Positions 4,648 through 56,185 of a DNA stretch of 64,000 bases are shown piece after piece. This DNA is from Patescibacteria group bacterium. GTDB taxonomy: Bacteria > Patescibacteriota > Patescibacteriia > UBA10025 > JAHIVO01. A program made the position numbers and the translations under genes. The stretch is from positions 1,074,118 to 1,138,117 of the forward strand of contig JBMOKY010000001.1 of NCBI GenBank assembly GCA_049325535.1, given 5' to 3'. Positions within the stretch are counted from its first letter, which is position 1. Every line of letters starts with the position of its first letter. Below the pieces are notes generated by a model, which did not search any database, was not told the origin of the DNA, and saw only the letters and a program-made list of their open reading frames with translations.

Positions 4648-4672
4648 GGTGTATGAAAATTTACACCTACCT

Positions 4673-33880: not shown

Positions 33881-34000
33881 AAAACATGATGCCCGATCGG
33901 GATGGAGTTAGTATATCACACCCCGAGCTCAATAGTTGGAACGTGGCGCAAAGGACTTATTCCATATATACTGACTATGATCATATACTATTGTCCGCGT

Positions 34001-35302: not shown

Positions 35303-35303
35303 T

Positions 35304-38201: not shown

Positions 38202-38204
38202 ACA

Positions 38205-39155: not shown

Positions 39156-39158
39156 AGA

Positions 39159-40607
39159 CTACGATGAGTGGGGCATGACTCTACCGGGCCATTTTTTCCC
39201 CATGATTGTATTCCATTGTACCATGAGGAAATAAAGTGCAACACTGACGCCAAAGAGCACATTCGGGAAGAAAACGCTCAGGCTGGCATAGTACATAAAA
39301 CCATAGAGAGTCGTCAATATGATCAGCGGCCGATAGTGCCGCTCGGGGACCAGCAGTGCCAATGGCACAAACCACAGGGTATACCAAACATTAAACTTCC
39401 CTCCCAATAAAAACAAGAACACCAATAACACCCAAAACCACCGCTTGATAAATGTATCAACCAGTGTCTCACTCCGCCGGAAAAGAAGCATGATATACAC
39501 CACGAGGAAGGTCAATAAATAGCTGGCGCGCTGGGTCACCAGATCAAAATGAAATCCTGGAATCACCCCATCCAACCACGACATGAGAGCGTAGAGCATA
39601 CTCTGGGGAAGCGTCAGATTATTATCAGTGACAAAAGCGCGGCCCAAATTGCCAATATTACGGTCAAAATTGTGCAGCGGTGCATAGGTTGCCAGCACCA
39701 TGCCGGTCACAATCAAGGCTCCGAGACCGATCGTCCGCCAGGCCTGGCGACGGGGCAAACGCAATGCCAGGAGCGCCACAAACGGCAATAAAATAATCGG
39801 GCCGAATTTGATGAGAAACGCGCCAGTGAGAAAGGTCGCCGCCCAGAGATAGCGAGTGCGAATCACCGCATACACTGCCGCCAGGACAAGCGTCATCATA
39901 AAGACGTCATTATGCGCCGAGTGAACCGCCTCGAACAGTATAAAAGGATTCCAGGCAAAAAGCGCGGTGACCGCATATCGACTCTGGGGTATGACACGCT
40001 CGGCGATTTTGTATACCAGCCATACGCACAGTAAAAATGCGGCGGCAGCGACCAGCCGATAGCCTATCAGGTTTGCTACCACATCCCCGCCGATGAGGCG
40101 GGACAGCAGCAAGGAGTAATTCATAAATAAGGGCCCATACACCGACACCTGTTCCGGCCAAGCTACCACCCCGCTATAGCCGAGCGCTGCGGGGGATATT
40201 TGGTATGGATTTGCATCGTGGGTATTGGCAATGACAGCCCGAGAGATATAGCCGTACACATCCGAAGAAAAAAATGGTGGGCTTAAAAATAAAATGCATA
40301 TGAATATGCAGACAAAGAAAATAACAATGGCGAGAGTCCGTGAATCATGTGCCAATTTCGCACCCTTCCACAAAAATAAAATATATACACCCAAAAACGC
40401 AAATAGAAAAAACGCGACCATTCCCAGGTGAGTAAAGAATACCCCGGCATGCCGCATCAGCGGTTTCGTTTCCTCCGGAGAACTAGAAATGACCATCAGG
40501 GTAAAGGCAAAAAAGAACGCGGCAAACAGGGTGCCCCACTGCCACAGGCGGCGATAGCGCTCATCGCGGGCCGAACTGAAAAAATTTGCAATTGTTGCCA
40601 ACATCAT
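39159..40607 (-). CDS. GT-C-fold membrane glycosyltransferase-like protein (DUF2029/GT87-like)
   Basis: About 12 TM with short loops. Translationally coupled within the operon. Confidence 0.5.
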   Translation of the reverse strand: MMLATIANFFSSARDERYRRLWQWGTLFAAFFFAFTLMVISSSPEETKPLMRHAGVFFTHLGMVAFFLFAFLGVYILFLWKGAKLAHDSRTLAIVIFFVCIFICILFLSPPFFSSDVYGYISRAVIANTHDANPYQISPAALGYSGVVAWPEQVSVYGPLFMNYSLLLSRLIGGDVVANLIGYRLVAAAAFLLCVWLVYKIAERVIPQSRYAVTALFAWNPFILFEAVHSAHNDVFMMTLVLAAVYAVIRTRYLWAATFLTGAFLIKFGPIILLPFVALLALRLPRRQAWRTIGLGALIVTGMVLATYAPLHNFDRNIGNLGRAFVTDNNLTLPQSMLYALMSWLDGVIPGFHFDLVTQRASYLLTFLVVYIMLLFRRSETLVDTFIKRWFWVLLVFLFLLGGKFNVWYTLWFVPLALLVPERHYRPLIILTTLYGFMYYASLSVFFPNVLFGVSVALYFLMVQWNTIMGKKWPGRVMPHSS

Positions 40608-40609
40608 AA

Positions 40610-41836
40610 TTATTTGAGCTGGTGGTTTACCCTGAGCGCATCATCAACGGAACTGTTCATCCGGATCAAATACAAAGTATAGATAATAAGTACCGTACAC
40701 AGGATGATGACCGCTGAAATAGCGGCGTACCCAAATGACTGCGGCCCCCACACCTGCCAGATCAATGGAAACGACGCATAATTAAGTATATCATACACCA
40801 CCACCAGCCATATCAAGCGTTTGTCCGCCACCAGGATGATAAGTGGCACGGCCCAGATGATCCACTGAGGTGAATAAAACCGCGAGCAGAGGGTAAAAAT
40901 GAGCACGCCGAGCGCCATCCAGCCAGCCAGCTGCGCCGGCGTGGTGAGATACCGCATCAGCACCCGGGGCTGTATGAGCGCCACCAGCGGCAATGAGAAT
41001 TGCAGCAGCAGGAATATCGTCAGACCAAGGTAATTCAGCTGTTCAATCCCGGTCGAGAGCAACGGCCCCTGCACGAACAGATAATACAGGCTACCCACGC
41101 CTCCCGGACGCGCTCCGTGAAAAAAATACGGCCTGAGCGAAGTAAATCCGTCAAAAACAAAAGACAGTGCCAAAAAGCCGATGACGACGGCAGCGCCATA
41201 CCCCAGGAACTGCCGCTGGGATGATCGAGCCATGACACCTTCGGTCTGCCGGATATACAGATACATCAGCGGCACAAAAATAACCGGATACCATTTGGTG
41301 AGTATGGCGATGGCAAAGACGATGGCGGCCATACGCCAGCGCCGCGATAGTACCAGCCACAGGCCAATCTGTACCCCAAGCGCCACCAACACGTCAAAAC
41401 GATTCATACCAAAATACAGTAACGACGGCAGCGCCAGAAGCAGCACCAACCACGGCGACCGCTGCAATCTTCGCAAGAGTCGCACGGTGACATAGACGAG
41501 GCCAAGGTACACCGCCAGATTCATGATGATAAATACCGTGCGATATGTATCATAGCCACCGGTAAAGATATACGGGAGGGTGATATACCCCAGTCCAATC
41601 TGCGGATACTCCTGAAAAATGCTGGCATCATAGGGAGTGACCCCCTGGGTGACCCAGCTGCCGCGATCATGAAATACGCTGATCTCATGGTCATCCCGCA
41701 GCAAGCGAGCCCGCGTCCCTTCGCTGAGCCAGTCAGTGGCGACAAAATCCGGAGCAAATAGCACAAATGTGCCGGCGGCCCCGACGATGATCATGGCCAG
41801 CCACATTGCCCATCGGGATGAAACCAATCTCATCAT
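40610..41836 (-). CDS. GT-C-fold membrane glycosyltransferase-like protein (DUF2029/GT87-like)
   Basis: About 11 TM. Translationally coupled to both neighbours. Confidence 0.5.
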   Translation of the reverse strand: MMRLVSSRWAMWLAMIIVGAAGTFVLFAPDFVATDWLSEGTRARLLRDDHEISVFHDRGSWVTQGVTPYDASIFQEYPQIGLGYITLPYIFTGGYDTYRTVFIIMNLAVYLGLVYVTVRLLRRLQRSPWLVLLLALPSLLYFGMNRFDVLVALGVQIGLWLVLSRRWRMAAIVFAIAILTKWYPVIFVPLMYLYIRQTEGVMARSSQRQFLGYGAAVVIGFLALSFVFDGFTSLRPYFFHGARPGGVGSLYYLFVQGPLLSTGIEQLNYLGLTIFLLLQFSLPLVALIQPRVLMRYLTTPAQLAGWMALGVLIFTLCSRFYSPQWIIWAVPLIILVADKRLIWLVVVYDILNYASFPLIWQVWGPQSFGYAAISAVIILCTVLIIYTLYLIRMNSSVDDALRVNHQLK

Positions 41837-43449
41837 AGCGATTGGGGCAATACCTCATAAATCGAAGCTTCGTCGTCACGATACGCACGGCGCAAACCAT
41901 TCGATTCCTCAGCCATGCGTTCCATGGCATGATGTGACGACTCAATAAAGACATACCGAGCATGAAACGTATCCCGGATCAGCTCATACCCCTTGTCCGT
42001 ATCCTTTCCGGTCGTGATGTCTACGATATGCCGATACAATTCCGGGCTGTATTCATAGGTAAAAGTCGGGTCCAGTCCGCTGATATAATAGGTGGACGGG
42101 CTTCGAAAAAAAAGTATAGGGAATTCGTCCCAGCTGGAATGGAATACGATATCCCCTGGCTGGGCATGGGTAGACAGCCATTGGCCGGCGCCGGCAAACC
42201 TCGTGACGGGTATGCCACCCATATAATCACTGCGGAGACGGACGAGATCCTTCGCCACGACCGCCGGAACGCCAACGGCAAAGTACACCACCAGTATAGT
42301 GGTGACCACCGAGTACCGGGTCGCGAACTGCCATACTGCTTTCCCTATGTCGCCCATGGTCTGCCGGCGTAATACGTGCTGCACTGTAAAGGCGATCCAG
42401 GTGACTGTGACTGGAATATAATACTCCACATACCGCCGTGATTTCAGGGTAAATGCCAAATAAAAAATAAAAAGTAAAAACAGCGCCAATTGCTTTCGGG
42501 AGTACGTCCGGTACAGGCCCATCAGTATGGCGGCCAATACGGCTAACACCGTGACTAAGACCGACTGGGTCCATAAATCAAATAGTTTATACGGGTACCA
42601 CTCCCCACCCACCGGGATGACCGTCTGATAGTTGACCACCCCGATTTGCACCAATTGCTGCCAATAAAACTGCAGGTTGGTGGGGAAATGCGGGTTGATG
42701 ATGATGCCCGCTAGGGTGCCTGCAAGCACGATCGCCATCATGCGGAGCTCCCGACTGTGTGAAATCACCAGCCAAAAAGAACGGCGCACATCCCGAAACC
42801 AATCGAGACCGATGCTCACCAGCGCATACGCACCGGCGGCGATGGGCAATACAATAAACCCCCCATACGCCCAGACAAACGCCCCGGAGATAAAAAGCAG
42901 GGTCAGGTACCGATACCGGAACAAGGCGTACAATCCACCAAATAAAAAGAGCAGGGAAACTACCGGCGCCTTGACCAGATTCAGCCGAAACATAAACGGC
43001 GTGGTCACCAGCAGCAGCACGGTAAACCAAAATGCAAACGGCACCCGGTGACGCCTGAAGAGGCTGTACATCAGGACGATCAGCGCAGTATTGAGCATGA
43101 CCTGGACAAATTTCGCCCCCAGAATCGGATCGGCAAATTCCGTAAATGGGATCAACAATACATGGTAGAGAAAATGCTGATTGATATATGCATCCTTCAG
43201 CGTCGATACTTGGAGCCAGGGGAATTCAGTGATGACGCCATGTTCCACGATACTGCGCGACATCTGGATATGGTAAAACGAATCCGGATCAGGAAATGTG
43301 GAAATCGTCTGAACATAGGTAAAAAGCGACAGGCTCATGATGATGACAAGCAGATACGACACATACCACCATTGGCGCCTCATCCATCCTAAAATTGTAC
43401 TGAGTCTGTTCATAATGACGAAAGGGTACCAATAGTCTCCGCCAAGCAT
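41833..43449 (-). CDS. Large GT-C-A type membrane protein (about 13 TM plus a roughly 140-aa C-terminal extracytoplasmic domain; STT3/ArnT/PMT-like architecture)
   Basis: The first external loop has FPDPDSFYH (a D-x-D-type acidic motif). The C-terminal domain after the last TM contains HSSWDEFP. Confidence 0.5.
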   Translation of the reverse strand: MLGGDYWYPFVIMNRLSTILGWMRRQWWYVSYLLVIIMSLSLFTYVQTISTFPDPDSFYHIQMSRSIVEHGVITEFPWLQVSTLKDAYINQHFLYHVLLIPFTEFADPILGAKFVQVMLNTALIVLMYSLFRRHRVPFAFWFTVLLLVTTPFMFRLNLVKAPVVSLLFLFGGLYALFRYRYLTLLFISGAFVWAYGGFIVLPIAAGAYALVSIGLDWFRDVRRSFWLVISHSRELRMMAIVLAGTLAGIIINPHFPTNLQFYWQQLVQIGVVNYQTVIPVGGEWYPYKLFDLWTQSVLVTVLAVLAAILMGLYRTYSRKQLALFLLFIFYLAFTLKSRRYVEYYIPVTVTWIAFTVQHVLRRQTMGDIGKAVWQFATRYSVVTTILVVYFAVGVPAVVAKDLVRLRSDYMGGIPVTRFAGAGQWLSTHAQPGDIVFHSSWDEFPILFFRSPSTYYISGLDPTFTYEYSPELYRHIVDITTGKDTDKGYELIRDTFHARYVFIESSHHAMERMAEESNGLRRAYRDDEASIYEVLPQSL

Positions 43450-43504: not shown

Positions 43505-44572
43505 CTACCGTAATTGTTTTTTAAAATAATCAACAACCGGTATCGGAGATGGATCCACACCATTGAGGATGCCCAGATAGAAACTAACATAACTGGACAA
43601 TAACAATAATTCCACTATCTGTTGTAAATCACCGGCTCCGCGGGTCTGATATGTCATTGCGTTGATGCCGGCCCTCCGCAGCACTCGCTCAGTTATGATA
43701 AAACGTTTCCGATTACGCTGATGGTATTGAGAAGATTGTAGCAAAATAAAAGCAAGGGTGCGCGGATTAGTCCGGGGAAAGGGCAGCCCCTCCATCAGGT
43801 GATGATTCATTTCGGAAATGAGAAAATAGTTGGCAAAGGACTTTCCATTTTCATTTATTTGATTAGCCATAATATGCGCATTGCCCGCTAAATGCTCAGC
43901 GGCAATAACAACCCCTTGGCGACCATGGAGGTACGAAGCGATTTTTTTTGCTTGGTTGCGGGTAGTGGGCACCGCGACACCAAATTGCTTGTGCAAAACG
44001 ATGATATGCCGGATGGCAGCATTGAATTCAGCATTGGCAATATGTACAAATCCAGCCTGCTGCAACAACGACAAAACGCCAATCAAAGAATACCCCAGCC
44101 CCATCCGCGGCTGATTTGAGGGGTTGAACCGGGGGTCAAAAATATAGGCGGGAATGTGGTGCTGTTTCGCCTGCGCCGCCAGCACACCGCCCGCGCCAAT
44201 CAACAGTATCTTGTTTGTCCGCTTTCGGGCTTCCGTAAGCGAAGCGGTCACCTCTTCAGTCGTCCCCGAATAGCTGGAACAAATAGCCAGCGTATGCCGA
44301 TCGACGAAGCGAGGCACGCGGTATTGATTAGTCACGATAAATGGGACTGCGAGCCGAGCTTGAAATGCGTGACGCACCACGTCCGCTCCCAGCGCTGAGC
44401 CGCCCATACCATTGAACCATATTGTGCGCGCTGAGCGGTACGCGGCCGGGATGCGAATCGTGGAAACATCATCACGCGCCTGCTGGCACTGCAGCGCCAA
44501 GGATTCAATTGATCCGATCATCCCTTGCTGGTCAAGTTTTTTTATGGCTTTAAAATTATCGAGACGATGCAT
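43505..44572 (-). CDS. Bifunctional phosphoglucose/phosphomannose isomerase (SIS-domain, archaeal-type PGI/PMI)
   Basis: Two SIS-like segments (FNGMGGSALGADV..., ICSSYSGTTEE) and length typical of the bifunctional PGI/PMI family. Confidence 0.7.
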   Translation of the reverse strand: MHRLDNFKAIKKLDQQGMIGSIESLALQCQQARDDVSTIRIPAAYRSARTIWFNGMGGSALGADVVRHAFQARLAVPFIVTNQYRVPRFVDRHTLAICSSYSGTTEEVTASLTEARKRTNKILLIGAGGVLAAQAKQHHIPAYIFDPRFNPSNQPRMGLGYSLIGVLSLLQQAGFVHIANAEFNAAIRHIIVLHKQFGVAVPTTRNQAKKIASYLHGRQGVVIAAEHLAGNAHIMANQINENGKSFANYFLISEMNHHLMEGLPFPRTNPRTLAFILLQSSQYHQRNRKRFIITERVLRRAGINAMTYQTRGAGDLQQIVELLLLSSYVSFYLGILNGVDPSPIPVVDYFKKQLR

Positions 44573-44669
44573 ATGGCATCAGGCTAATTAAAAAATGATG
44601 TATTGATAATACCACATAAATATGGTATAGTAAACGTATTCAGACCTGTTTTGCGGTATCAAAAAAAGT

Positions 44670-45392
44670 ATGTCCGGACACTCCAAGTGGGCTCAAATAA
44701 AACGCCAGAAAGCGGTCACCGACCAACGTCGTAGTGGCCTTTTTACCAAACTGGCAAACGCCATCACCATCGCGGCCAAACAAGGAGGAACGGATCCCAA
44801 CATGAATTTTCGCCTACGTATGGCCATCGATAAAGCGAAGGAAGGAAATATGCCGAATGACAATATTGACCGGGCGATCCAGCGGGCTGCGGGGGGAGAA
44901 GACGGTGCCAGCATTGAGGAAATCGTGTACGAAGGGTATGGGCCCCATGGGGTGGCGCTGGTTATCGAAGCGGCCACGGATAACAAAAACCGCACCGCCA
45001 GTACCATTAAACAAATACTGGCAAAAAATAACGCCAGCCTCGGCGGTCCGAACAGCGTCATGTGGATGTTTGACCGCAAAGGCGTGGTCCTGGTTGCTGC
45101 CGACCAGATATCCGACGCCGATGCTTTTGAACTGCGGGCGATTGATGCCGGGGCCGATGACATCGTCCGCTCACCCGAAGGATTTACCATCTATACGAGC
45201 TACGACCGGCTCACTGCCCTGAAAAAAAATTTGGAATCAACAGGATGCGTCGTCACATCCGCCGATATCGCCCTAGTTCCGCAAACAACCGTTCCACTCT
45301 CGGAAAAAGACGCATCGGGGATCCGCACATTGCTCGATGAACTCGAGCACAATGAAGATGTCACGAATTACTACACGAATGCCGACGTCTAA
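44670..45392 (+). CDS. yebC: YebC/PmpR family transcriptional regulator
   Basis: MSGHSKWAQIKRQKAVTDQRRSGLFTKLANAI is the canonical N-terminus. Confidence 0.85.
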   Translation: MSGHSKWAQIKRQKAVTDQRRSGLFTKLANAITIAAKQGGTDPNMNFRLRMAIDKAKEGNMPNDNIDRAIQRAAGGEDGASIEEIVYEGYGPHGVALVIEAATDNKNRTASTIKQILAKNNASLGGPNSVMWMFDRKGVVLVAADQISDADAFELRAIDAGADDIVRSPEGFTIYTSYDRLTALKKNLESTGCVVTSADIALVPQTTVPLSEKDASGIRTLLDELEHNEDVTNYYTNADV

Positions 45393-45891
45393 ACGGACGC
45401 CAATCGTCATGGGGATCGACCCCGGACTGGCCACCACCGGATACGGCATCATTCAGGAATCAGGCAGTGGATACCGCCTGATCGCCGCAGGGGCCATCAT
45501 CACGAAGCCGACCCTCACCTTCGGCAAACGACTCCAGCGTATATACAGCGACATCGGCCGACTGATTACCCGCCACCACCCGAGTATCATCGGCATTGAG
45601 CAGCTATTCTTCGCTCGCAATGTCAGCACCGCGCTGACGGTCGGTCAGGCACGCGGGGTCATCTGTCTCGCCTGCGCCCACCATGCCTGTACTATCCGCG
45701 AATTTACACCGCTGCAGATTAAACAAGCGCTCACCGGATACGGTCATGCCGACAAAGTGCAAATGCAAAAAATGGTGACACTGATACTCAAACTTAAGAC
45801 CGCCCCACAGCCCGACGACGTGGCCGACGCATTGGCCATCGCCCTCTGTACTGCCCAGACTAAGCATTTTGTTAATCAAAAAACTCGATAA
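45379..45891 (+). CDS. ruvC: Holliday junction resolvase RuvC
   Basis: MGIDPGLATTGYGI and the downstream acidic catalytic residues are present. The start is uncertain (45379 or 45409). Confidence 0.8.
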   Translation: MPTSKRTPIVMGIDPGLATTGYGIIQESGSGYRLIAAGAIITKPTLTFGKRLQRIYSDIGRLITRHHPSIIGIEQLFFARNVSTALTVGQARGVICLACAHHACTIREFTPLQIKQALTGYGHADKVQMQKMVTLILKLKTAPQPDDVADALAIALCTAQTKHFVNQKTR

Positions 45892-47366
45892 TGCCCGCGC
45901 AAAAAAAACTACGCATCGCCTGTGTCGCCTCCGAGGTGGCGCCGTACTCAAAAACCGGCGGGCTCGGTGACGTGGCGAAGGCGTTGCCAAAAGCGCTGTC
46001 CGAAAAAGGACACCAAGTATTCATCATCACCCCCTTCTACAAATTCATGCGGGAGCAAAATTTGGATACCCATCCAGTTCCAGTAAAAACCAGCGTCACC
46101 ATCGGCAAAACAAAATATAGTATTCACTTTAGTTCACTTAATTATTCCGACCACCTGACTATATTTTTCATCCACAATGGACCGCTCTTTAGTGATCGAT
46201 CCCGAGTCTACGGGTATCCTAACGACAGCATTCGTTTTCTGGTTTTCGACGCTGCGGCATTGAAGCTTCTGGAACTGCTGAAACTGAAGCCAGATGTCAT
46301 CCACTGCCATGATTGGCAAACCGGACTCATCCCCAACATCCTCTGCAAACAAAAAAAACGATACCCGTCATTGCGAAAAACGGCGACTCTGTTCACTATC
46401 CACAATCTGACCTACCAAATGGCCGGCAACTGGTGGGAGGTCAAGCCTCGATACGCCGATAACGGTCGCTGTGATCCCACGCTCAAAACACAAGCTGAAA
46501 CCAAACATCTCAATTTTACAAAACGCGCCATTTTTTATGCTGACCTGATAAGCACGGTCAGTGAGCGGTATGCCGAGGAAATCACCACGCCAGAACTCGG
46601 CCAAGGCATGGATCGCTATTTGCGGCAGCGTAAAGATGACCTCTACGGTATCATCAATGGTATCGATTACACCGTCTACAATCCCGCCTATGACCGACAC
46701 CTGCCCTACCCCTACGACTGGAATAGCCTCGGCGGCAAAAAGAAAAACAAGCTCGCCCTACAAAAAAAAGTTAAGCTTGAGCAAAACATCGATATTCCAC
46801 TTATCGGGGTGGTGAACCGCCTGACGGAACAAAAGGGATTCCAGCTGATCATGGAATCAATCGACATACTCACCCGGCTTCCTCTGCAAATGGTAATCGT
46901 CGGCAGCGGGTTTAAAGAATATGTTGCCTTCTTCAAACGGGTAGCAAAAAAACATCCTAAAAAAATCAGTATCTACACCCCATTTTCTGAAGAATTGGCC
47001 TCACTCGTATATGCCGGCTCTGACATGTTTCTGATGCCGTCTCGTTTCGAGCCCTGCGGCCTGTCCCAACTGATCAGCCTGCGCTATGGATCAGTGCCGA
47101 TCGTGCACGAAACAGGGGGCCTGTCCGACACTGTTACCCATTACAACCCGCGGACAAAAAAAGGGAACGGTTTTGTCTTCAAACAATATAGCACCGCTGA
47201 TTTTCTCATTGCCGTCACCCGGGCTATGGAAAATTATAAATACAGCGACGCCTGGGAGCAGCTGACCCGCCGGGGGATGCAACAAACCTATTCCTGGGAA
47301 CTGCCCGCGCAAAAATATATCCAACTGTACTTTTTGGCGCAAAAAAAGAAAGGGGGTCGACCATGA
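45891..47366 (+). CDS. glgA: Glycogen (starch) synthase, GT5
   Basis: LRIACVASEVAPYSKTGGLGDVAKALPKAL is the canonical GlgA N-terminal K-T-G-G-L motif. Confidence 0.85.
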   Translation: MPAQKKLRIACVASEVAPYSKTGGLGDVAKALPKALSEKGHQVFIITPFYKFMREQNLDTHPVPVKTSVTIGKTKYSIHFSSLNYSDHLTIFFIHNGPLFSDRSRVYGYPNDSIRFLVFDAAALKLLELLKLKPDVIHCHDWQTGLIPNILCKQKKRYPSLRKTATLFTIHNLTYQMAGNWWEVKPRYADNGRCDPTLKTQAETKHLNFTKRAIFYADLISTVSERYAEEITTPELGQGMDRYLRQRKDDLYGIINGIDYTVYNPAYDRHLPYPYDWNSLGGKKKNKLALQKKVKLEQNIDIPLIGVVNRLTEQKGFQLIMESIDILTRLPLQMVIVGSGFKEYVAFFKRVAKKHPKKISIYTPFSEELASLVYAGSDMFLMPSRFEPCGLSQLISLRYGSVPIVHETGGLSDTVTHYNPRTKKGNGFVFKQYSTADFLIAVTRAMENYKYSDAWEQLTRRGMQQTYSWELPAQKYIQLYFLAQKKKGGRP

Positions 47367-48577
47367 TGCGCTGGGCAAATTTTTTTCATATCTATCAGCC
47401 GCCCCGTTGGGCGGCGTCAACCATCCGCAAGGTTACTCGTGAGAGCTATCGGCCATTGGTCCGCATTTTGAAACTCCATCCGCGCATTCATCTGACGCTG
47501 AACATTGCCGGCTCACTGACGGAACAATTGGCTGCGCTCGGCTACCGGAATCTGCTCCAGGATATCCGCCTATTGCTGAGACGCGGACAGATAGAAATAA
47601 CCGGAACGGCGCTCTATCACCCTATCTTGCCCAAACTACCCTCCACTGAGATCCGCCGGCAAATACTGCTCAATACCCGCATCAATCAGAAATTTTTTGG
47701 CGCCGACTTCCACCCCCGGGGTATATATTTTCCTGAAATGGCCTACGGCCACGCGGCGGCCACCGTCAGCAAAAAACTCGGGTACCGCTGGATGATCCTG
47801 GATGAGATTGCTTATGATGGAACACTCGGACGCACTCAGTTCACCAGCCATTACCGCCATGCCCGCACCGGACAATCGATCATCCTGCGCAATAAAATCG
47901 TCAGTGACTACATCGCTTTTTCCGCACCACTGCGACAGCCAGCGGCATTCTGGCGGCATCTGGAAGAAGATGGACGATCTGACCGCGTCCTAGTGACCGC
48001 TATGGATGGGGAAACGCTCGGGCACCACCGTCCCGGGGCTGACACGTTGTGGCAACGGCTTGTCACTGACCCGCGAGTGCACGCCATGACCATGACTGAG
48101 TTACTGGCGACTCTTGACCGCCCCCGGCGGCTGTTGCCCCGGCCGTCGAGCTGGTCATCCCGGCCGACGGAACTGCGCCATCACCACCCCTATCTGCTCT
48201 GGGATGACCCGACAAATCCCATCCATCCGCTCCAGTGGCAACTGCTTAATCGGGTGCTGCGGCTCGTCCAGCGCTCATCTCATGCCCAGGCGCGGATGCT
48301 GATGGATCAGACGCTGGCCTCTGATCAATTTTGGTGGGCGTCGGCCAAACCATGGTGGAGCAAAAAAATAGTCGACGCCAAGGTTCGCGAGCTAGCCGCC
48401 ATTGCCATGCTGCTACAGCCTCCGGCCACCTGGGCCAACCGGCTGGCCGACCGGATCATTACCCTGACCAGCCAATGGCAAACGAGCGGCCGGTACCAGC
48501 GCATCACCCAGCGCTACCTGGCCAGTAGCCCGTATGAATTTGTACACTATATCGGTGGCAAACGAATAACTTCCTAA
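47363..48577 (+). CDS. Glycoside hydrolase family 57 protein (alpha-glucan branching/processing enzyme type)
   Basis: N-terminal FFHIYQPP and the catalytic-region motif TAMDGETLGHHRPG, similar to the GH57 FDTELFGHWW motif. Confidence 0.7.
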   Translation: MMRWANFFHIYQPPRWAASTIRKVTRESYRPLVRILKLHPRIHLTLNIAGSLTEQLAALGYRNLLQDIRLLLRRGQIEITGTALYHPILPKLPSTEIRRQILLNTRINQKFFGADFHPRGIYFPEMAYGHAAATVSKKLGYRWMILDEIAYDGTLGRTQFTSHYRHARTGQSIILRNKIVSDYIAFSAPLRQPAAFWRHLEEDGRSDRVLVTAMDGETLGHHRPGADTLWQRLVTDPRVHAMTMTELLATLDRPRRLLPRPSSWSSRPTELRHHHPYLLWDDPTNPIHPLQWQLLNRVLRLVQRSSHAQARMLMDQTLASDQFWWASAKPWWSKKIVDAKVRELAAIAMLLQPPATWANRLADRIITLTSQWQTSGRYQRITQRYLASSPYEFVHYIGGKRITS

Positions 48578-48586
48578 CACGATACT

Positions 48587-49969
48587 ATGTATTGGTCAAA
48601 CTTCCTTCATATTTATCAACCGCCAACACAAAAGGAGTATTGGGTAAAGAAAATCGCCAATGAAAGTTACCGCAAATTAATGACCGGCTTAAAAAAACAT
48701 CCGAGTGCAAAAGTCACGCTCAACATAAATGCCGGCCTGACCGACCTCTTCCACCAGTACGGCTGCCATGACGTCATCCATGACATCAAATTCTTGGCCG
48801 AGCAGGGACAGATAGAGCTTACCGCCAGCGCAAAATACCACCCCTTCCTTCCGCTGATGCCGGAAAAGGAAATTATCCGTCAAATCAAGCTCAACACCGA
48901 AACTAATAAAAAATATTTTGGTGATGTATATAATCCGACAGGTTTTTTCCCGCCGGAAATGGCCTATAGCCGTGCGGTCGGTGATACCGTTGCCAAACTC
49001 GGTTACCGCTGGATGATCCTGGACGAGCTGGCGCATTCGGGTAGTCTCAACACGGTCGACTGGTCAACTATATATACTCTGGCGGGACATGACGACTTTT
49101 TCGTATTCTTTCGCGAACGGGCGGCTAGTTTTCGCATCCTGTCAGCAGAAATTGGGATGAGTGTTTTTTCTGGGAGTATGCTTATTCAACTGCTGGGCGA
49201 ACGCGTGACAAATAATGAATACCTGATTACCGCCATGGACGGGGAAACATTTGGACACCACCGTCCCGGGCTGGAGCAGCTGCTGTTTGATCTCTATGAA
49301 ACCCCGGAACTGCGGGCCGTCACTATGAGTGAGCTTCCCCAGCTCTTCAACCAGCGCACGAGCATCGAACCGCGCCCCTCTTCCTGGGCGCTGATGAAAC
49401 GCGACGTCGAACAAAATACCCCCTACTCCCGTTGGCAGGACAAAGACAATGAAATCCACGATATGCAATGGGAATTAACCTACATGGCCATTGCCGCGGT
49501 CGAAGCGCTTGATCCGACAGACCAGCGCTATACAGCACTCCGCACCAAACTCGATCGCGCCGTTCACTCTGACCAATACTGGTGGGCATCGGCCATGCCC
49601 TGGTGGAGCATCGAGATGGTAGAGGCCGGCGCCAAAGACCTAAAAGATATCATCCAGGATTCTCAAGCATCCGATTCAGAAAAAAAACACGCACAAGTAC
49701 TCTACCAGAACATTCTCTTTACCGCCTTTGACTGGCAGCGCAGCGGCAAAGTCGATGTGATGGCGAAATCAGCCGATGAAGATGTCACCCAGCGCATCAC
49801 GACTGACATCCCCTACATCCCGGAGGAGGAATTTGACACCATGGTGGAAAATCTAAAAAAGCAGATGCTCGAGGCGGCGGACGCCGAAGAATATGAGCGC
49901 GCCGCCCAAATACGCAATCGGGTCCATGAATTGCTGGAGAAAAAAGATCAATTGACCCACAAACACTAG
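48587..49969 (+). CDS. GH57 family protein (paralog) with a C-terminal UVR domain
   Basis: FLHIYQPP and TAMDGETFGHHRPG indicate GH57. The C-terminus LKKQMLEAADAEEYERAAQIRNRVHELLEKK matches the UvrB/UvrC UVR motif. Confidence 0.7.
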   Translation: MYWSNFLHIYQPPTQKEYWVKKIANESYRKLMTGLKKHPSAKVTLNINAGLTDLFHQYGCHDVIHDIKFLAEQGQIELTASAKYHPFLPLMPEKEIIRQIKLNTETNKKYFGDVYNPTGFFPPEMAYSRAVGDTVAKLGYRWMILDELAHSGSLNTVDWSTIYTLAGHDDFFVFFRERAASFRILSAEIGMSVFSGSMLIQLLGERVTNNEYLITAMDGETFGHHRPGLEQLLFDLYETPELRAVTMSELPQLFNQRTSIEPRPSSWALMKRDVEQNTPYSRWQDKDNEIHDMQWELTYMAIAAVEALDPTDQRYTALRTKLDRAVHSDQYWWASAMPWWSIEMVEAGAKDLKDIIQDSQASDSEKKHAQVLYQNILFTAFDWQRSGKVDVMAKSADEDVTQRITTDIPYIPEEEFDTMVENLKKQMLEAADAEEYERAAQIRNRVHELLEKKDQLTHKH

Positions 49970-49970
49970 C

Positions 49971-50984
49971 ATGGTAATGGGCACCTATCCGCCGCTGACC
50001 AGCGCTGAGCGCATTCGGACAGCGCGGCTGATGCGAAATATAGCGGACACCGCTGGTTTTGTGCGTCAGCGAGTCATTCGCCGCGGACCACGATATCACA
50101 TCGAGCAAGGAGCACGATACGGAGCACCGGCAATCGCCAAGCTCAGCCTGCGCCCCCGCTCGCAAGACCACTTGACCAATGAAAAATTTGGCCGGGAAAT
50201 TTTATGGCTTCAGTTTCTAGGCGGGCGGCGTTCGTCACCATTGGTTCGGGCGGTACCGCAGCTATATGCCGCAGCGACGTCACCTCGGGCATGGTATGTG
50301 CGCGAACACATCACCGGAACCCCGTTTCATGCGGGTAACAATGAAGCTCAATTTACCGATCGTTTTTTCACCTCCCAAAACCTCCGCTGGCTTTCCGCGC
50401 TGCTTTACGATTTGCACTATATCAAAAAAAATGAACTGCCACATCCATTCCGCGCTCTACTCCACCAACCAGAACTCCCTCAATATCTCTGGCGTTTTAT
50501 TCAGCCCTACGCCCGGCGCATTGAGTCATTCACTCGCGCTCCCGGGCTGACCCAGCGGCTGAAACCGCGCGTCATCGCACTCCAGGACGTCTTTTCCCGC
50601 GCACCACGCGTACTCGGGCACCAAGAGCTCTACCCAGCTCATGTCCTCCAGACGCGCCATGGGCTGCGCCTGATTGATTGGGAAAACATCGGCTGGGCGC
50701 TGCCGAGTTATGACTGGGTCACCGTGTGGCTACGAGCATTCGGCCACCCCAGCTGGCAGCGATCCCTGTACCGGGAGTACTGCCGACACTACCGACACTA
50801 CCCCCAAGCAACGGAACTCTGGCGCGGCACCATATTGCTACAATCAGTATTCAATGTCGTCGGATATCATTTCTACCCGGTCCGCCGGCATTTCCGCCCT
50901 TTAGCTGATTACTGCGCCGCACAGCTGATCGGATCCCAGCCCTCAAAAAAAATGTGGTACAATACACAAAGAGCATCCAACTGA
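49971..50984 (+). CDS. Protein-kinase-like fold phosphotransferase (APH/maltokinase/choline kinase superfamily)
   Basis: HQELYPAHVLQTRHGLRLIDWENIGWALPSYDW matches the APH catalytic loop H-G-D-x-x-x-N plus the IDWE/D activation motif. Confidence 0.6.
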   Translation: MVMGTYPPLTSAERIRTARLMRNIADTAGFVRQRVIRRGPRYHIEQGARYGAPAIAKLSLRPRSQDHLTNEKFGREILWLQFLGGRRSSPLVRAVPQLYAAATSPRAWYVREHITGTPFHAGNNEAQFTDRFFTSQNLRWLSALLYDLHYIKKNELPHPFRALLHQPELPQYLWRFIQPYARRIESFTRAPGLTQRLKPRVIALQDVFSRAPRVLGHQELYPAHVLQTRHGLRLIDWENIGWALPSYDWVTVWLRAFGHPSWQRSLYREYCRHYRHYPQATELWRGTILLQSVFNVVGYHFYPVRRHFRPLADYCAAQLIGSQPSKKMWYNTQRASN

Positions 50985-51030
50985 AGTCGGTTGTCCTGAT
51001 GCGCATCTAACGCATTGAACGCTGCCCATC

Positions 51031-52491
51031 ATGAATGTACTATTTATTACCGCCGAAATGGCTCCGCTGGCAAAAGTTGGCGGACTCGCCGATGTCGCCG
51101 GCGCTTTGCCTAAAGCGCTCAAACAATTAGGAGTGGACATCCGCGTGGTCATGCCAAAATATGCCAGTATCGACACCAGCCAATACCCCCTCCAGCACGT
51201 CGCAGATGGGATTACCATACCATTTAAAGGCACAACTGAGGTGGTATCACTCTACGCCACCACCATTCCCGGCAGCGATGTGCCCGTTTACCTAATTGAA
51301 CACCCGGGGTATTTGAGCACACATGCGATATACTTTGAGGACATCGAGCGGCAGGACAAAACACAGCTGGAGGCGGAACGATTCCTCTTCTTCTCCCGAG
51401 CCAGCCTGGCCATTCCCGCCTCGACCGGTTGGTATCCCGACATTATTCACTGTCAGGACTGGCATGTCGGACTGGTACCGATTCTCAGAGACATCCTAGG
51501 GAAAAAAGACGCTCGGCTGGCCAGAGCAAAGACACTCCTGACAATCCACAATCTCGAATACCAGGGCTGGTACCAAAAACAAACGGTATTTGACTTGCTC
51601 GGACTCACTCCATCGGATCATCCGGCCTTACGTGACACACCCCGCGACCAGATCATCAGCTTACGGCATGGGATTCTTACGGCTGATTATCTCAATACGG
51701 TTTCGGAAACGTACGCCCACGAAATTCTGACACCTGAATTTGGCGCCCATCTCGAACACGACTTGCATAACCGACAACGGCAGCTCCGTGGCATCGTCAA
51801 TGGGATCGACACGGAACGATTCGATCCGGAAACCGACACGGCCATAGCCGCCACGTACACCGCCGCACACCCGGAAAATAAAAAACAGTGCAAAACCGCC
51901 CTGCAAAAATTATGCGATTTGCCAACTGACACTGAAGCGCCGCTGCTCGGGATCGTCAGTCGATTGGCCCAGCAAAAAGGTATCGACTTATTGGTCGACA
52001 TCATTGATGACATCGCTGAATCAGGGGCTCAGCTGGTCGTCCTCGGGACCGGATTGCCCGATATCGAACAGGCGGTACAGGCCGCCGCAAAACGCAACCC
52101 CGCATCCGTATCGGCACAAATCGGATTTGATGGGACACTCGCCCGACGAATATACGCCGGATGCGACTTTTTCCTCATGCCATCACGATACGAGCCATGC
52201 GGACTTGGGCAAATGATTGCCATGCGCTATGGTACCGTGCCGGTAGTCCGTGCCACTGGCGGGCTGAAGGATACGGTACACGAAATTACCGTCAATGGCG
52301 CTGCCGGCGAAGGATTTGTATTTGACGAATATAGCGCACCTCAATTTCTACAGGCAATACAGCGAGGTCTGGGACTTTATCAGAACGAAAAAGCATGGCA
52401 TACTGTAATCAGCCGCATTATGCGCCTCGACTTTTCCTGGGACGCGTCAGCCAGACAATATTACCAGCTCTACCAAACACTCAAGCCCTAA
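51031..52491 (+). CDS. glgA: Glycogen (starch) synthase, GT5 (second paralog)
   Basis: MNVLFITAEMAPLAKVGGLADVAGALPKAL. Confidence 0.85.
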   Translation: MNVLFITAEMAPLAKVGGLADVAGALPKALKQLGVDIRVVMPKYASIDTSQYPLQHVADGITIPFKGTTEVVSLYATTIPGSDVPVYLIEHPGYLSTHAIYFEDIERQDKTQLEAERFLFFSRASLAIPASTGWYPDIIHCQDWHVGLVPILRDILGKKDARLARAKTLLTIHNLEYQGWYQKQTVFDLLGLTPSDHPALRDTPRDQIISLRHGILTADYLNTVSETYAHEILTPEFGAHLEHDLHNRQRQLRGIVNGIDTERFDPETDTAIAATYTAAHPENKKQCKTALQKLCDLPTDTEAPLLGIVSRLAQQKGIDLLVDIIDDIAESGAQLVVLGTGLPDIEQAVQAAAKRNPASVSAQIGFDGTLARRIYAGCDFFLMPSRYEPCGLGQMIAMRYGTVPVVRATGGLKDTVHEITVNGAAGEGFVFDEYSAPQFLQAIQRGLGLYQNEKAWHTVISRIMRLDFSWDASARQYYQLYQTLKP

Positions 52492-53487
52492 ATGACCCCA
52501 CTTACTCCCAAATCAAAAACAGCGAAAGAAAAACCGCTGAAAGAAGTAAGAATAGAACCAACTAACAGTGAGGTGCGCATCGACGAAATTCACGATCGCT
52601 TCATTATTATAGCGCCGAAACGAGGAAAACGACCGCATGACACCAAACAACACATCCAGGACGTCCCCGTCAAATCAAAAGACTGTCCCTTTTGTTTGGA
52701 AACAAAAATGATGTCCCAGTCCCCGCTGTACCAGGAAGGTCCGGACGAATGGTGGGAGATTAAAGTAATAAAAAACATATTTCCTTTTGTCAGTCCGGAC
52801 AATCCAAATGCCTATGGTCATCAGGAGGTGATTATTGAAACCCCGCATCACAATAAAGAATTTGCGGATTTTGGTGAATCCCATGTGTACCGGGTACTCA
52901 AGGCATATGTAGCGCGGACGAAATCGCTGATGAAGGACCCAAAAATCAAATACATCATCATTTTCAAAAACCATGGCGGTAAGGCCGGCGCCTCCTTGGT
53001 GCATGCGCACTCCCAAATTATGGCAGCAGGCTTTGTGCCAAGCCATATCGTCAATAAATTAAGTCGCGCCCGGGCCTACCAGATCAAGCACGGTGCCTCA
53101 TACTATGCCAAACTGGCCCATGACGAAGTCAGGGGTCCGCGTAAAATCTATAGCGACAAATATATCGCCGCGTTCTGCCCCTATGCTTCTTCATATAACT
53201 ATGAAGCGTGGATTTTACCGAAACGGCAGGTTGATAATATTTCCCAGCTGGACGAAGAGGAATTAAAGTCGCTAGCAAAAGTGCTGAAACACATCATTAA
53301 AAAGGTCAATCAGCTGGAACTCCCGTATAATTTTTACATGCATCAGACGGTTACCGATCCCAATGAATATTTTTATCTGAGGGTGTGCCCCCGCCGGGAC
53401 ACCTGGGCAGGGGTTGAGCTGGGTTCCCGGGTCATCATCAATACGGTCGCCCCGGAAGACGCGGCAAAATTTTACCGCGGACGATAG
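52492..53487 (+). CDS. Galactose-1-phosphate uridylyltransferase family enzyme (GalT class I HIT branch; could be NDP-glucose phosphorylase-type)
   Basis: The zinc motif CPFC and the active site FKNHGGKAGASLVHAHSQIMA are present (GalT HPHGQ-type H-x-H-x-Q). Confidence 0.8.
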   Translation: MTPLTPKSKTAKEKPLKEVRIEPTNSEVRIDEIHDRFIIIAPKRGKRPHDTKQHIQDVPVKSKDCPFCLETKMMSQSPLYQEGPDEWWEIKVIKNIFPFVSPDNPNAYGHQEVIIETPHHNKEFADFGESHVYRVLKAYVARTKSLMKDPKIKYIIIFKNHGGKAGASLVHAHSQIMAAGFVPSHIVNKLSRARAYQIKHGASYYAKLAHDEVRGPRKIYSDKYIAAFCPYASSYNYEAWILPKRQVDNISQLDEEELKSLAKVLKHIIKKVNQLELPYNFYMHQTVTDPNEYFYLRVCPRRDTWAGVELGSRVIINTVAPEDAAKFYRGR

Positions 53488-53539
53488 TCGGTCCGAGCTT
53501 GACGAAAATATATGCTCGGGTAAGATAGAGGTCACTCGT

Positions 53540-53887
53540 ATGTCATACGCCTCCCCCTATTTTTATATCGTTGCCATTGTCCTGATTGCTGTCGTTGGAG
53601 GTGGCTTTATCTGGGCGTACGAAGCGGAAGCCCCTCAGCCCGAATACCAACCGCCGGCTCTCCACCAGCCGACGGTGCTTGGTGCCGCCACCGGAGAACC
53701 GATCATACAGCCCCTCGCCGCGGAATCAGCCCCGCTTGAGCAGGCCGATCTGATACCCAGCCAAGTAAATGTTGAGTATCTATCATACTGCCACCGCCCC
53801 GCCCGACTCGCTGAACTGGACCTATGGTCAGGCCAGCCAACCCTCCGACTGCGGGCACACCTGGCCAATCCTACTGCCTGCAAATAA
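53540..53887 (+). CDS. Small membrane-anchored hypothetical protein (Pro/Gln-rich)
   Basis: An N-terminal TM helix, YFYIVAIVLIAVVGGGF, is present. No recognisable domain. Confidence 0.35.
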   Translation: MSYASPYFYIVAIVLIAVVGGGFIWAYEAEAPQPEYQPPALHQPTVLGAATGEPIIQPLAAESAPLEQADLIPSQVNVEYLSYCHRPARLAELDLWSGQPTLRLRAHLANPTACK

Positions 53888-55288: not shown

Positions 55289-56185
55289 ATGCCGAAACAT
55301 ACCATAGGATTAGACGTCGGGGGTACCAAAATACAGGCGGGGGTCATCACGCGAACCGGGCGCGTCATCGATTCGGTTCAGTTTGCCAACGACATCAGCA
55401 CCACCCGTCGTACACTTGCCCAGATTATGGCCGCCATTGATCATTTTTTTCGTACTCATACCATTGGTGGCATTGGCGTCGGTATAACTGGGGTAGTGGA
55501 GTCAGCTGCGGGTGTGGTAGTCAGTTCCCCCAATCTCCCGCGTGACTGGCATCGCATACCGCTCGGCCGGCTGCTCAAAAATAAATATCACGTCCCAATA
55601 TCTATTGATAATGATGCAAATTGCTGCGCGCTGGCCGAGGCGCTTATTGGTCGCGGCAAACGCTACAGCGTGGTACTCGGCCTGACAATCGGTACCGGCA
55701 TCGGCACGGGCCTGGTTATCGATAAAAAATTGTACCGTGGCGGTTTACAGGCCGTCGAGTTTGGCCATACGGTCATCAGTGATTCCCAGGTTCGCTGTAG
55801 CTGTGGTCGCCCCGGGCATTTCGAAGCGCTGGTTTCAGGTACAGCGTTGGTTGCTGCTTACCGCCGTCAAACCGGCACTACAAAGACCTCATACCAGATC
55901 ATTGCCGAAGCACGAGCCGGGAAACGAGCCGCACGCCAAACGCTGCACACCATGAGCGGCTATCTCGCCCGTGGATTGGCCAATGCCACTCAGGCCTACT
56001 CACCGGACATTATCGTGCTCGGCGGGGGACTGGCTCGTGTCTCTGCCTTAGTGAAACCGGCGCTGAAAAAGGTGCCCACACTAGTTCGCGCGGTGCAAAC
56101 ACGACGGCCCCATATAGTTACGTCACGACTTCACTATGACGCCGGCATCATCGGAGCCGCCCTCCTCGCTCACCAGCCTCGCTAA
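55289..56185 (+). CDS. ROK-family sugar kinase (glucokinase-like, second copy)
   Basis: IGLDVGGTKIQAG and the CSCGRPGHFEA zinc motif. Confidence 0.8.
   Translation: MPKHTIGLDVGGTKIQAGVITRTGRVIDSVQFANDISTTRRTLAQIMAAIDHFFRTHTIGGIGVGITGVVESAAGVVVSSPNLPRDWHRIPLGRLLKNKYHVPISIDNDANCCALAEALIGRGKRYSVVLGLTIGTGIGTGLVIDKKLYRGGLQAVEFGHTVISDSQVRCSCGRPGHFEALVSGTALVAAYRRQTGTTKTSYQIIAEARAGKRAARQTLHTMSGYLARGLANATQAYSPDIIVLGGGLARVSALVKPALKKVPTLVRAVQTRRPHIVTSRLHYDAGIIGAALLAHQPR

Follow-up and report, generated by a model that had tools for sequence, protein, structure and literature searches.

Described alpha-glucan systems and the patescibacterial locus

In Escherichia coli the genes of glycogen metabolism are clustered in one operon (glgBXCAP), and the polymer is made by a GlgA-type synthase of glycosyltransferase family GT5. 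Both features are shared by the subject of this work, a cluster of six genes at positions 45891-53487 of a 64,000-nucleotide stretch of DNA, hereafter the window, from a Patescibacteria group bacterium (assembly GCA_049325535.1, contig JBMOKY010000001.1, positions 1,074,118 to 1,138,117 of the forward strand). However, GlgC, a GH13-type GlgB, GlgX and a GT35-type GlgP are absent from the window and from related loci, and two synthases are encoded instead of one. Enzymes of family GH57 stand where GH13 enzymes would stand in E. coli, and a HIT-family enzyme and an APH-fold kinase have been added. We consider it fairly probable that the cluster is a conserved operon for a cytoplasmic, glycogen-like storage alpha-glucan, which combines GT5 and GH57 enzymes in an archaeal-like design and is fed by nucleoside diphosphate (NDP)-glucose.

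An archaeal system of this design is known from Sulfolobus acidocaldarius, in which deletion of the GH57 'amylase' gene beside glgA abolishes glycogen and no branching enzyme has been identified (PMC8158581; PMC11046441). In a 2024 review it was asked whether the GH57 amylases are the missing branching enzyme (PMC11046441). As in the archaeal amyA-glgA cluster with its GH15 gene, the patescibacterial GT5 synthase adjoins a GH57 protein outside the branching subfamily and no recognised branching enzyme was seen; moreover, a GH15-like gene was found in the cluster of two relatives (L003 and L045). The archaeal cluster differs in that it contains glgC and glgX, a single synthase and a single GH57 gene, and lacks the HIT enzyme, the kinase and the UVR tail described below.

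In Pseudomonas aeruginosa glgC is also absent, and it was proposed from gene content that GlgA works on UDP-glucose derived from GalU. The patescibacterial locus likewise has GlgA without glgC, with GalU available for UDP-glucose, but the linear glucan of P. aeruginosa feeds the TreY/TreZ and GlgE pathway and is accompanied by a GH13 GlgB, none of which was seen here. Two divergent GT5 synthases in one organism are known from cyanobacteria: in Synechocystis the two GlgA isoenzymes divide labour and differ in primer preference and product architecture. In contrast to the patescibacterial pair, these synthases work with GlgC and a GH13 GlgB, outside any GH57/HIT operon. Finally, for the cultured Patescibacterium TM7x, glycogen storage was suggested in a paper's discussion. 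The parts of the locus thus have precedents (GalU-fed GlgA, GT5 donor promiscuity, paired GlgA, and glycogen in the Candidate Phyla Radiation (CPR)); for their combination in one operon, no published description was found in literature searches on this cluster in the CPR.

Organization of the cluster

The six genes, together with two genes and a promoter-like site that lie immediately upstream, are arranged as follows.

44603-44631, + strand: promoter-like site, TTGATA-17-TATAGT with extended TG, upstream of yebC; a consensus match only and a candidate operon start
44670-45392, + strand: yebC (YebC/PmpR family; NF001030, 292.8 bits), first gene of the conserved block
45337-45891, + strand: ruvC, whose stop shares nucleotide 45891 with the glgA1 start
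45891-47366, + strand: GlgA1, GT5 alpha-1,4-glucan synthase, 491 residues (TIGR02095)
47363-48577, + strand: GH57a, 404 residues (PF03065), with a 4-nucleotide overlap with the glgA1 stop
48587-49969, + strand: GH57b, 460 residues, with a C-terminal UVR helical hairpin (PF03065, PF02151)
49838-49933, + strand: UVR motif of GH57b, residues 418-449 (PF02151, E 2.2e-7)
49971-50984, + strand: atypical APH-fold kinase, 337 residues (PF01636, E 7e-10)
51031-52491, + strand: GlgA2, GT5 alpha-1,4-glucan synthase, 486 residues (TIGR02095)
52492-53487, + strand: GalT-class HIT enzyme, predicted At5g18200 type, 331 residues (best PDB match 1z84)

An initial sequence-only reading had listed the six open reading frames from glgA1 to the HIT gene, and all of them were found in place on the + strand, intact and with ATG starts. 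The remaining junctions measure 9 nucleotides between GH57a and GH57b, 1 between GH57b and the kinase, 46 between the kinase and glgA2, and 0 between glgA2 and the HIT gene. Since these junctions are tight and the only good promoter-like site (44603-44631) lies upstream of yebC, the genes yebC-ruvC-glgA1-GH57a-GH57b-kinase-glgA2-HIT probably form one eight-gene operon. No convincing terminator-like site was evident on the + strand from 44603 to 53487, and yebC was found to precede ruvC-glgA1 in those related loci whose fetched sequence extends far enough upstream. The real start of ruvC is probably ~60-70 nucleotides 3' of its first ATG; the Pfam match of RuvC starts at residue 24, and its orthologs are 155-164 residues long.

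By exact look-up the six proteins correspond to MFZ6036602-607 of a metagenome-assembled genome, and their nearest relatives belong to Candidatus Kerfeldbacteria. Four of the six are named in NCBI merely as 'hypothetical protein' (GH57a), 'UvrB/UvrC motif-containing protein', 'phosphotransferase' and 'DUF4931 domain-containing protein' (the HIT enzyme), and automated metabolic reconstructions therefore miss most of the pathway. A characterised close relative is lacking for four of the six proteins. When their N-termini were inspected by reading, no signal peptide or hydrophobic N-terminus was evident in any of the six, and a secreted starch-scavenging system was judged unlikely on this basis.

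Conservation across Patescibacteria

One genome per species was searched with an alignment of the HIT family. This matched 278 genomes, and the best 80 loci from these 278 were compared. The complete cluster was found in L001, L003, L005 and L006, with the same gene order around relatives of the kinase and GH57b. Because the gene order recurs in dozens of species-level genomes whose proteins are 40-70% identical, chance can be discounted as its cause. The immediate upstream neighbour of the HIT gene is a GT5 synthase in 49 of the 71 species-level loci with enough flanking sequence, and the distance from the glgA2 stop to the HIT start is about -35 to +10 nucleotides in most loci. Of 56 loci whose upstream flank is complete, 34 have GH57a, GH57b and GlgA2 together.

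The kinase is less constant: of the 41 loci with both GH57b and GlgA2, 21 encode it. In 13 of the same 41 a PHP-domain phosphoesterase was found, and 12 of these 13 also encode the kinase; the cluster in the window has the kinase and no PHP gene. In distant lineages a single GH57 protein of ~383 residues occurs, which has no UVR tail and is equidistant from GH57a and GH57b. From this, the ancestral core can be given as GlgA1-GH57-GlgA2-HIT, and what was added later, in particular lineages, is the duplication of GH57, the UVR tail and the kinase, either alone or together with the PHP protein.

Where it occurs, the PHP phosphoesterase gene separates the kinase from glgA2 (L003:10987-11859 and 13 further loci, namely L010, L011, L013-L019, L022, L023, L061 and L082; L026 is the same contig as L003). 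The best match of its product is 3',5'-nucleoside bisphosphate phosphatase, with 133 bits where the cut-off is 400. The insertion beside the kinase suggests a kinase/phosphatase pair.

All 80 loci are patescibacterial in appearance, though several records bear other names. Many cluster-bearing records, including L017, L019, L020 and L024, are titled 'uncultured Gammaproteobacteria', and others (L012, L039 and L070) carry the names Zixibacteria, Omnitrophota or Pirellulales. These oddly titled records are probably mislabelled or contaminated bins.

Absence of the classical glycogen genes from the window and related loci

Classical glycogen genes were sought in 64 kb of the ~1148 kb sequence and in 88 related loci, with 7-10 kb around each. 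With E. coli MG1655 GlgP, GlgB and GlgX as tblastn queries, no match was obtained in the window or in these loci. GlgC, defined here as a glucose-1-phosphate adenylyltransferase of ~430 residues with a C-terminal left-handed beta-helix, was not found there either: the only proteins matched were a 288-residue nucleotidyltransferase and GalU. Phosphoglucomutase (PGM) was absent from the 64-kb window, which does encode GalU, two ROK kinases and one PGI/PMI isomerase, and no relevant gene was found in ~3 kb added beyond the window edges. The description of the locus as an alpha-glucan cluster without glgC, GH13 glgB and glgP, given in the sequence-only reading, thus holds for the window and for every related locus examined.

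The HIT enzyme

The product of the last gene matches the domain families GalP_UDP_transf, HIT, DUF4931_N and DUF4921. Its closest PDB relative is 1z84, the Arabidopsis protein At5g18200 (E 5.5e-40), which is an ADP-glucose phosphorylase by activity. Galactose-1-phosphate uridylyltransferases (GalT) of Pyrobaculum aerophilum (5.9e-25) and E. coli (2.4e-14) followed. Identity to At5g18200 is 30.8% over ~305 residues, compared with 24.7% to GalT. The motif HAHSQ lies at residues 171-175 (nucleotides 53002-53016). This motif was invariant in 27 family members, as were the Cys2His2 zinc site (C65, C68, H120 and H171), the nucleophilic His and the Gln.

The residues by which E. coli GalT binds its substrate have not been kept. 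D78, K311 and Q323, which we take to be UDP-hexose-binding, are replaced by Ile, Asp and Ile, respectively; of the presumed iron site, E182 is replaced by Lys and H296 is deleted. All five positions are unconserved in At5g18200 as well. The two proteins therefore have in common the H-x-H-S-Q motif, the Cys2His2 zinc site and the lack of both the GalT iron site and D78, K311 and Q323. They differ in that the operon enzyme is bacterial, is translationally coupled to a glycogen synthase and is only ~31% identical to the plant protein.

It may be asked whether the HIT protein is a Leloir-type GalT after all, and the cluster a set of extra copies within an ordinary pathway whose glgC, branching enzyme and glgP are scattered elsewhere. 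The window represents ~5% of the genome, which leaves room for such genes, and in some loci the HIT gene is separate from glgA. The second-best PDB relative, from P. aerophilum, was deposited as GalT, and the two top NCBIfam models are GalT models. However, both scored under their cut-offs (TIGR00209 galT, 95.4 bits against 102.1; NF008724, 108.7 bits), and the replacement of D78, K311 and Q323 is shared with At5g18200. Neither galK nor galE was found near the HIT gene. Moreover, the tight glgA2-HIT coupling is conserved in the 49 of 71 loci mentioned above, and glgC, glgB, glgP and glgX occur in 0 of the 88 related loci within 7-10 kb. An ordinary scattered pathway is, on this evidence, unlikely. 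Because 1z84 is the closest structure, the GalT substrate residues have been lost and the galT equivalog cut-off was missed, the protein is predicted to be of the At5g18200 type rather than a Leloir GalT. The suggestion of the sequence-only reading, that the GalT-like enzyme could act as an NDP-glucose phosphorylase, is supported by the best match to 1z84 and by the difference from GalT at the UDP-hexose-binding positions.

On textbook equilibria, and reportedly for At5g18200, the HIT reaction would be favoured in the direction of phosphorolysis, and its sum with the synthase reaction is the reaction of glycogen phosphorylase. A purely biosynthetic role as a 'GlgC replacement' is demanding because a high ratio of glucose-1-phosphate (G1P) to inorganic phosphate (Pi) would be required. 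The enzyme may instead drain or regulate the pool of donor, or it may form one half of a phosphorolytic couple.

The paired synthases and the supply of glucosyl donor

Both synthases belong to GT5, as GlgA1 scored 511.6 bits and GlgA2 534.1 bits with TIGR02095 (cut-off 328.45). With NF001899 GlgA2 reached 453.4 bits against a cut-off of 459. The GT5 motifs, K-x-G-G-L near the N-terminus and PSR[FY]EPCGL with the catalytic Glu towards the C-terminus, are KTGGL and PSRFEPCGL in GlgA1 and KVGGL and PSRYEPCGL in GlgA2, and they are kept in most orthologs. GlgA2 is the paralog closer to E. coli GlgA (36.5% identity, compared with 30% for GlgA1), and GlgA1 forms a separate orthologous group across loci. 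The glgA duplication noted in the sequence-only reading is an old paralog pair, with 37% identity between GlgA1 and GlgA2. The counterpart of E. coli GlgA Tyr355, aligned by eye, is Phe in both paralogs and is not diagnostic of the donor. Archaeal GT5 synthases use ADP- or UDP-glucose. The following genes of the window bear on the supply of donor and on the fate of glucose.

25417-26295, + strand: GalU, candidate supplier of UDP-glucose, 20 kb away from the cluster (TIGR01099, 319 bits against a cut-off of 326.8)
4643-5509, + strand: short generic sugar-1-phosphate nucleotidyltransferase, 288 residues (weak tblastn match to E. coli GlgC, 23% identity)
43505-44572, - strand: bifunctional PGI/PMI-type isomerase, a conserved divergent neighbour found in the same place in L001, L003 and L006
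55289-56185, + strand: ROK-family glucokinase-like gene, downstream of the cluster in 16 of 80 loci

The galU call had already been made in the sequence-only reading, and it stands, with a score just below the model cut-off. The best NCBIfam matches of the 288-residue nucleotidyltransferase are the Arch_glmU N-terminal domain, RmlA_long and MurU, all under their cut-offs. This gene lies directly upstream of the second ROK-family kinase gene (the two together span 4643-6510) and is a possible alternative source of NDP-sugar. The ROK-family gene at 55289-56185 is the likely entry of free glucose into glycolysis.

The link between GlgA2 and the HIT gene raises another explanation, in which GlgA2 would run in reverse (glucan + ADP to ADP-glucose) and, with the HIT phosphorylase, replace GT35, while GlgA1 and GH57 synthesise the polymer. 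Of the two divergent synthases only GlgA2 is coupled to the HIT gene, GlgA1 being coupled to GH57a, and no GlgP was found in the window or related loci. The net reaction would be favourable at cellular Pi/G1P, and At5g18200 reportedly has a micromolar Km for ADP-glucose. Against this, the steady-state concentration of ADP-glucose would be very low, and to our knowledge the physiological reversal of a GT5 synthase has not been demonstrated. A hydrolytic route (GH57, GH15, ROK kinase and PGI) that would be sufficient is encoded nearby, and the HIT gene persists in loci without a synthase. Breakdown by such a two-enzyme couple therefore seems very unlikely.

The atypical APH-fold kinase

The kinase was found to have the catalytic loop HQELYPAH at residues 217-224 (nucleotides 50619-50642) and the sequence IDWEN at residues 235-239. 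The Brenner loop H-x-D-x-x-x-x-N is absent, and the loop of the family is instead H-Q-E-x-Y-x-x-H. K57 (the ATP-binding Lys), E76 (the alphaC Glu), H217, E219, H224 and D236 (the metal-binding Asp) are invariant in the family. In the top 150 representatives, the sequences with H-x-E…H group together as a coherent clade, whose sister groups have the canonical H-G-D…N loop. The family is small: it comprises 26 clusters in an index of 5.8 billion proteins, and a profile search at E<=0.001 matched 262 of 1.84 billion representatives. The AlphaFold2 model (mean predicted local distance difference test score, pLDDT, 92) has an APH-type fold. Its structural likeness is about equal (template modelling (TM) score 0.5-0.6, 10-18% identity) to aminoglycoside, macrolide and corramycin kinases, MTR kinase, choline kinase and FN3K.

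The sequence-only reading had called this protein maltokinase-like. The maltokinase Pep2/Mak indeed shares the APH-type fold and a location among alpha-glucan genes. However, Pfam gave only the APH domain and no Mak N-terminal cap domain, and the catalytic Asp and Asn are changed to Glu and His. No maltokinase was matched by the family profile among PDB sequences at E<=10 or appeared in the top 50 Foldseek matches. Neither GlgE nor TreS, which are of GH13 type, was found in the window or in the 88 related loci, where E. coli GlgB and GlgX queries would detect GH13 cores. The maltokinase-like assignment was dropped for these reasons. Clustering with antibiotic kinases, which the same reading had named as a result that would count against it, was looked for and not seen. 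A resistance kinase was rejected, as the fold likeness is generic, no resistance-family hidden Markov model was matched and synteny with glucan genes is conserved. A pseudokinase was considered unlikely in view of the strict conservation of the Lys, the alphaC Glu, the Asp of DWEN and the Glu/His pair. The protein is thus predicted to be an active small-molecule kinase, and an optional accessory of the operon.

Two further cluster types with a HIT gene and a kinase were encountered in the CPR. In the first, Form B, the gene order is GT4, an APH kinase with the canonical HGDxxxxN loop, GT4, GT4, HIT and a 619-residue protein without a Pfam or NCBIfam match (L031, L038, L040, L049, L050, L054 and L081; e.g., L038:2301-12340). 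The Form B kinase is homologous to that of the window (hhalign probability 94.8%), and its Asp and Asn align with the Glu and His. An apparent natural GT4-HIT fusion in L081, which would have been a 'Rosetta stone', was rejected since the joint is a run of X at a scaffold gap. In the second type, Form C, found in Kuenenbacteria-type genomes, a PfkB-family kinase gene lies directly upstream of the HIT gene (L032, L034, L035, L037 and L047; e.g., L032:3806-5753). The best matches of this kinase are nucleoside kinase, ribokinase and ribose-1-phosphate kinase, all under their cut-offs.

The HIT gene thus adjoins a kinase in three unrelated contexts: the H-x-E APH kinase, the canonical APH kinase of Form B and the PfkB kinase of Form C. 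These pairs recall the GalK/GalT and NahK/GalT2 modules, as sugar-kinase-like and GalT-family HIT genes recur beside glycosyltransferases in the three CPR cluster types. NahK, too, has an APH fold. In contrast to NahK/GalT2, the HIT enzyme of the operon is of class I and At5g18200-like rather than a class II GalT2, and about half of the clusters do without the kinase.

In keeping with this resemblance to kinase-plus-HIT-transferase modules, a bypass of GlgC can be proposed. The HIT enzyme would make NDP-glucose from ADP or another NDP and G1P and hand the donor to GlgA2, and the kinase, where present, would be anomeric and raise G1P; the storage of glucose would then cost one ATP rather than two and would need neither PGM nor GlgC. 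The absence of GlgC from the window and every related locus, the absence of PGM from the window, the translational coupling of glgA2 and HIT in most loci and the three kinase contexts all agree with such a bypass. However, with phosphorolysis favoured, the net conversion of G1P to glucan + Pi would be a reversed glycogen phosphorylase reaction at an unusually high G1P/Pi. About half of the clusters lack the kinase, which has no specific similarity to anomeric kinases, and GalU and the second nucleotidyltransferase of the window would already be able to supply NDP-glucose. We therefore regard the bypass as improbable.

The GH57 pair

GH57a and GH57b match PF03065 at E 1.9e-30 (106.6 bits) and E 3.3e-31 (109.1 bits), respectively, well above the gathering cut-off of 21.2. 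The duplication of GH57 reported in the sequence-only reading was confirmed as an old paralog pair with 37% identity. The conserved regions of GH57a include HIYQPP, GQIEIT, YFPEMA (with the Glu nucleophile) and AMDGETLGHH (with the Asp donor); PEMA and MDGET occur in both paralogs, and all five conserved regions of the family are retained in each. Nucleophile and donor are kept in 39 of 39 GH57a sequences and in the most common motif variants listed for these and for 42 GH57b sequences, and the possibility that GH57a is an inactive 'like' protein was rejected on these grounds. No protein of the cluster is better conserved than GH57b, whose median identity in complete loci is 62.5%, compared with 44.7% for GH57a, and whose orthologs are 57-84% identical. 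With GH57 structures the AlphaFold2 model of GH57b (pLDDT 85) gave E-values of 1e-16 to 1e-11, which confirms the fold of the family, a (beta/alpha)7-barrel with a helical bundle.

In the sequence-only reading, branching or processing was the probable role of the GH57 enzymes. The intact catalytic residues agree with this, but the fingerprint positions are not those of branching enzymes. In GH57 branching enzymes position 23 is Leu, and Phe at position 35 precedes a non-aromatic residue at position 36 (Martinovicova and Janecek, 2018; PMC6037648). The fingerprint of GH57 alpha-amylases is Glu/Gln at position 1, Arg/Glu at position 12, Thr at position 23 and Tyr-Tyr at positions 35-36 (PMC6037648). 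The present pair has Tyr at position 1, Phe or Tyr at position 12 and Trp-Trp at positions 35-36, so that only Thr23 agrees with the alpha-amylases. GH57a and GH57b are therefore predicted to be active enzymes of a distinct GH57 clade that matches no defined specificity.

GH57b alone carries the UVR region, which gave profile matches to the C-terminal hairpins of UvrB. In the AlphaFold2 model a disordered linker (residues 397-408) is followed by helices at residues 413-432 and 436-451. Neither GH57a nor the single-copy GH57 of distant lineages has such a tail. A hairpin of this type, joined through a disordered linker, suggests contact with another protein.

Proposed function

We return to the reading of the cluster as an operon for a storage alpha-glucan. 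All six proteins are intact and keep their active-site residues, the kinase with its H-x-E…H variant loop. NDP-glucose would come from GalU, as UDP-glucose, or from the short nucleotidyltransferase, as ADP-glucose or another NDP-glucose. GlgA1 and GlgA2 would elongate alpha-1,4 chains from this donor, probably with a division of work like that of the cyanobacterial GlgA1/GlgA2. The GH57 enzyme or enzymes would provide the chain transfer, branching or trimming required for a soluble glucan. The HIT enzyme, translationally coupled to GlgA2, would catalyse NDP-glucose + Pi <-> glucose-1-phosphate + NDP via a nucleotidyl-His intermediate, and would in this way set the level of donor at the synthase or draw it down. 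Breakdown would probably be hydrolytic, from GH57 (with GH15 in some lineages) to glucose and on through the ROK kinase to PGI. The kinase would be an accessory small-molecule kinase that phosphorylates a sugar or a glucan-related substrate.

Several observations weigh against this reading. The HIT gene does not adjoin a synthase in 22 of the 71 loci, and L063, L067 and L076 keep it after ruvC with the glucan genes gone (PGI-yebC-ruvC-HIT-PBP1). The function of the HIT enzyme is therefore not strictly tied to an adjacent GlgA. About half of the otherwise complete clusters are missing the kinase. The branching-enzyme fingerprint is absent from the GH57 pair, which has Thr (GH57b and the GH57a of the window) or Asn (the majority of GH57a orthologs) at position 23 and, as noted, Trp-Trp at positions 35-36. 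Moreover, the catalytic part comprises ~400 residues, compared with 520-560 in branching enzymes, and NCBIfam branching-enzyme models gave 19-34 bits against cut-offs of 920-1000. Comparison of sequence and fold does not discriminate between a branching enzyme, a 4-alpha-glucanotransferase and an amylopullulanase: Foldseek matched the GH57b model about equally to all three (TM about 0.6), and the family profile matched Thermotoga maritima AmyC, the Thermococcus litoralis 4-alpha-glucanotransferase and archaeal branching enzymes at similar E-values. The sequences of the synthases do not reveal which nucleotide their donor carries, and the enzyme activities of the operon proteins are predictions. 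Canonical glgC, glgB, glgP or pgm may also exist outside the ~5% of the genome that was searched. The sequence-only interpretation as a whole was borne out in part, for the glucan locus, galU and the HIT enzyme and not for the maltokinase-like kinase.

A bolder version, which we find rather doubtful, can be formulated. In it the HIT enzyme and a dedicated GlgA2, to which it would be coupled physically or kinetically, replace both GlgC and GlgP, interconverting G1P and glucan reversibly with a catalytic amount of ADP or another NDP and no ATP for activation. The H-x-E kinase, with or without the PHP protein, would drive or gate this exchange, and the GH57 of non-branching type would be the 'missing branching enzyme' of prokaryotes without GlgB. 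If the replacement of GlgC and GlgP by HIT and GlgA2 were true, the At5g18200 enzyme class would gain its first physiological role.

A large part of bacterial diversity falls within the Patescibacteria, whose genomes measure ~1 Mb and for which dependence on hosts is assumed. As a conserved storage-glucan operon would occupy ~0.7% of such a genome, carbon storage would matter to the lifestyle of these bacteria, for example in host-free phases. The operon holds three uncharacterised enzyme clades. We know of no physiological role for ADP-glucose phosphorylases of the At5g18200 type, and the translational coupling of the HIT gene to a glycogen synthase is a genomic clue to one. The operon also bears on the chemistry of an APH-fold kinase clade with Glu/His in place of the catalytic Asp/Asn, and on the question, asked for archaea, of whether 'amylase-type' GH57 enzymes serve as branching enzymes in organisms without GlgB (PMC11046441).

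Other features of the window

The cluster lies ~7 kb away from dnaN and dnaA. An open reading frame of 157 residues with a TTG start (53414-53887) overlaps the 3' end of the HIT gene; since it has no family match and no conserved counterpart, it is probably no gene.

Next to the PGI/PMI-type isomerase gene, a big envelope-glycosylation block spans 30259-43449, and the portion adjoining PGI is kept in related loci. It encodes a DUF2079 membrane protein, a flippase-like Polysacc_synt protein, a hexapeptide acyltransferase, two GT4 and one GT2 glycosyltransferases and two GT87/PMT-like membrane glycosyltransferases, together with two proteins of 538-547 residues without a Pfam match.

Near the start of the window the 23S rRNA match (1028-4095) spans 3068 nucleotides, compared with 2925 positions in the model, which implies one or more insertions totalling ~140 nucleotides; rRNA insertions are often reported for the CPR. 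The 5S rRNA follows at 4187-4302. A protein of 297 residues with two cytochrome b5-like haem-binding domains is encoded at 14512-15405, which is unexpected in a presumed fermentative bacterium with a small genome. Finally, a transporter of 1098 residues from the AcrB/RND family, whose pumps are usually associated with diderm envelopes, is encoded at 22060-25356 on the - strand.

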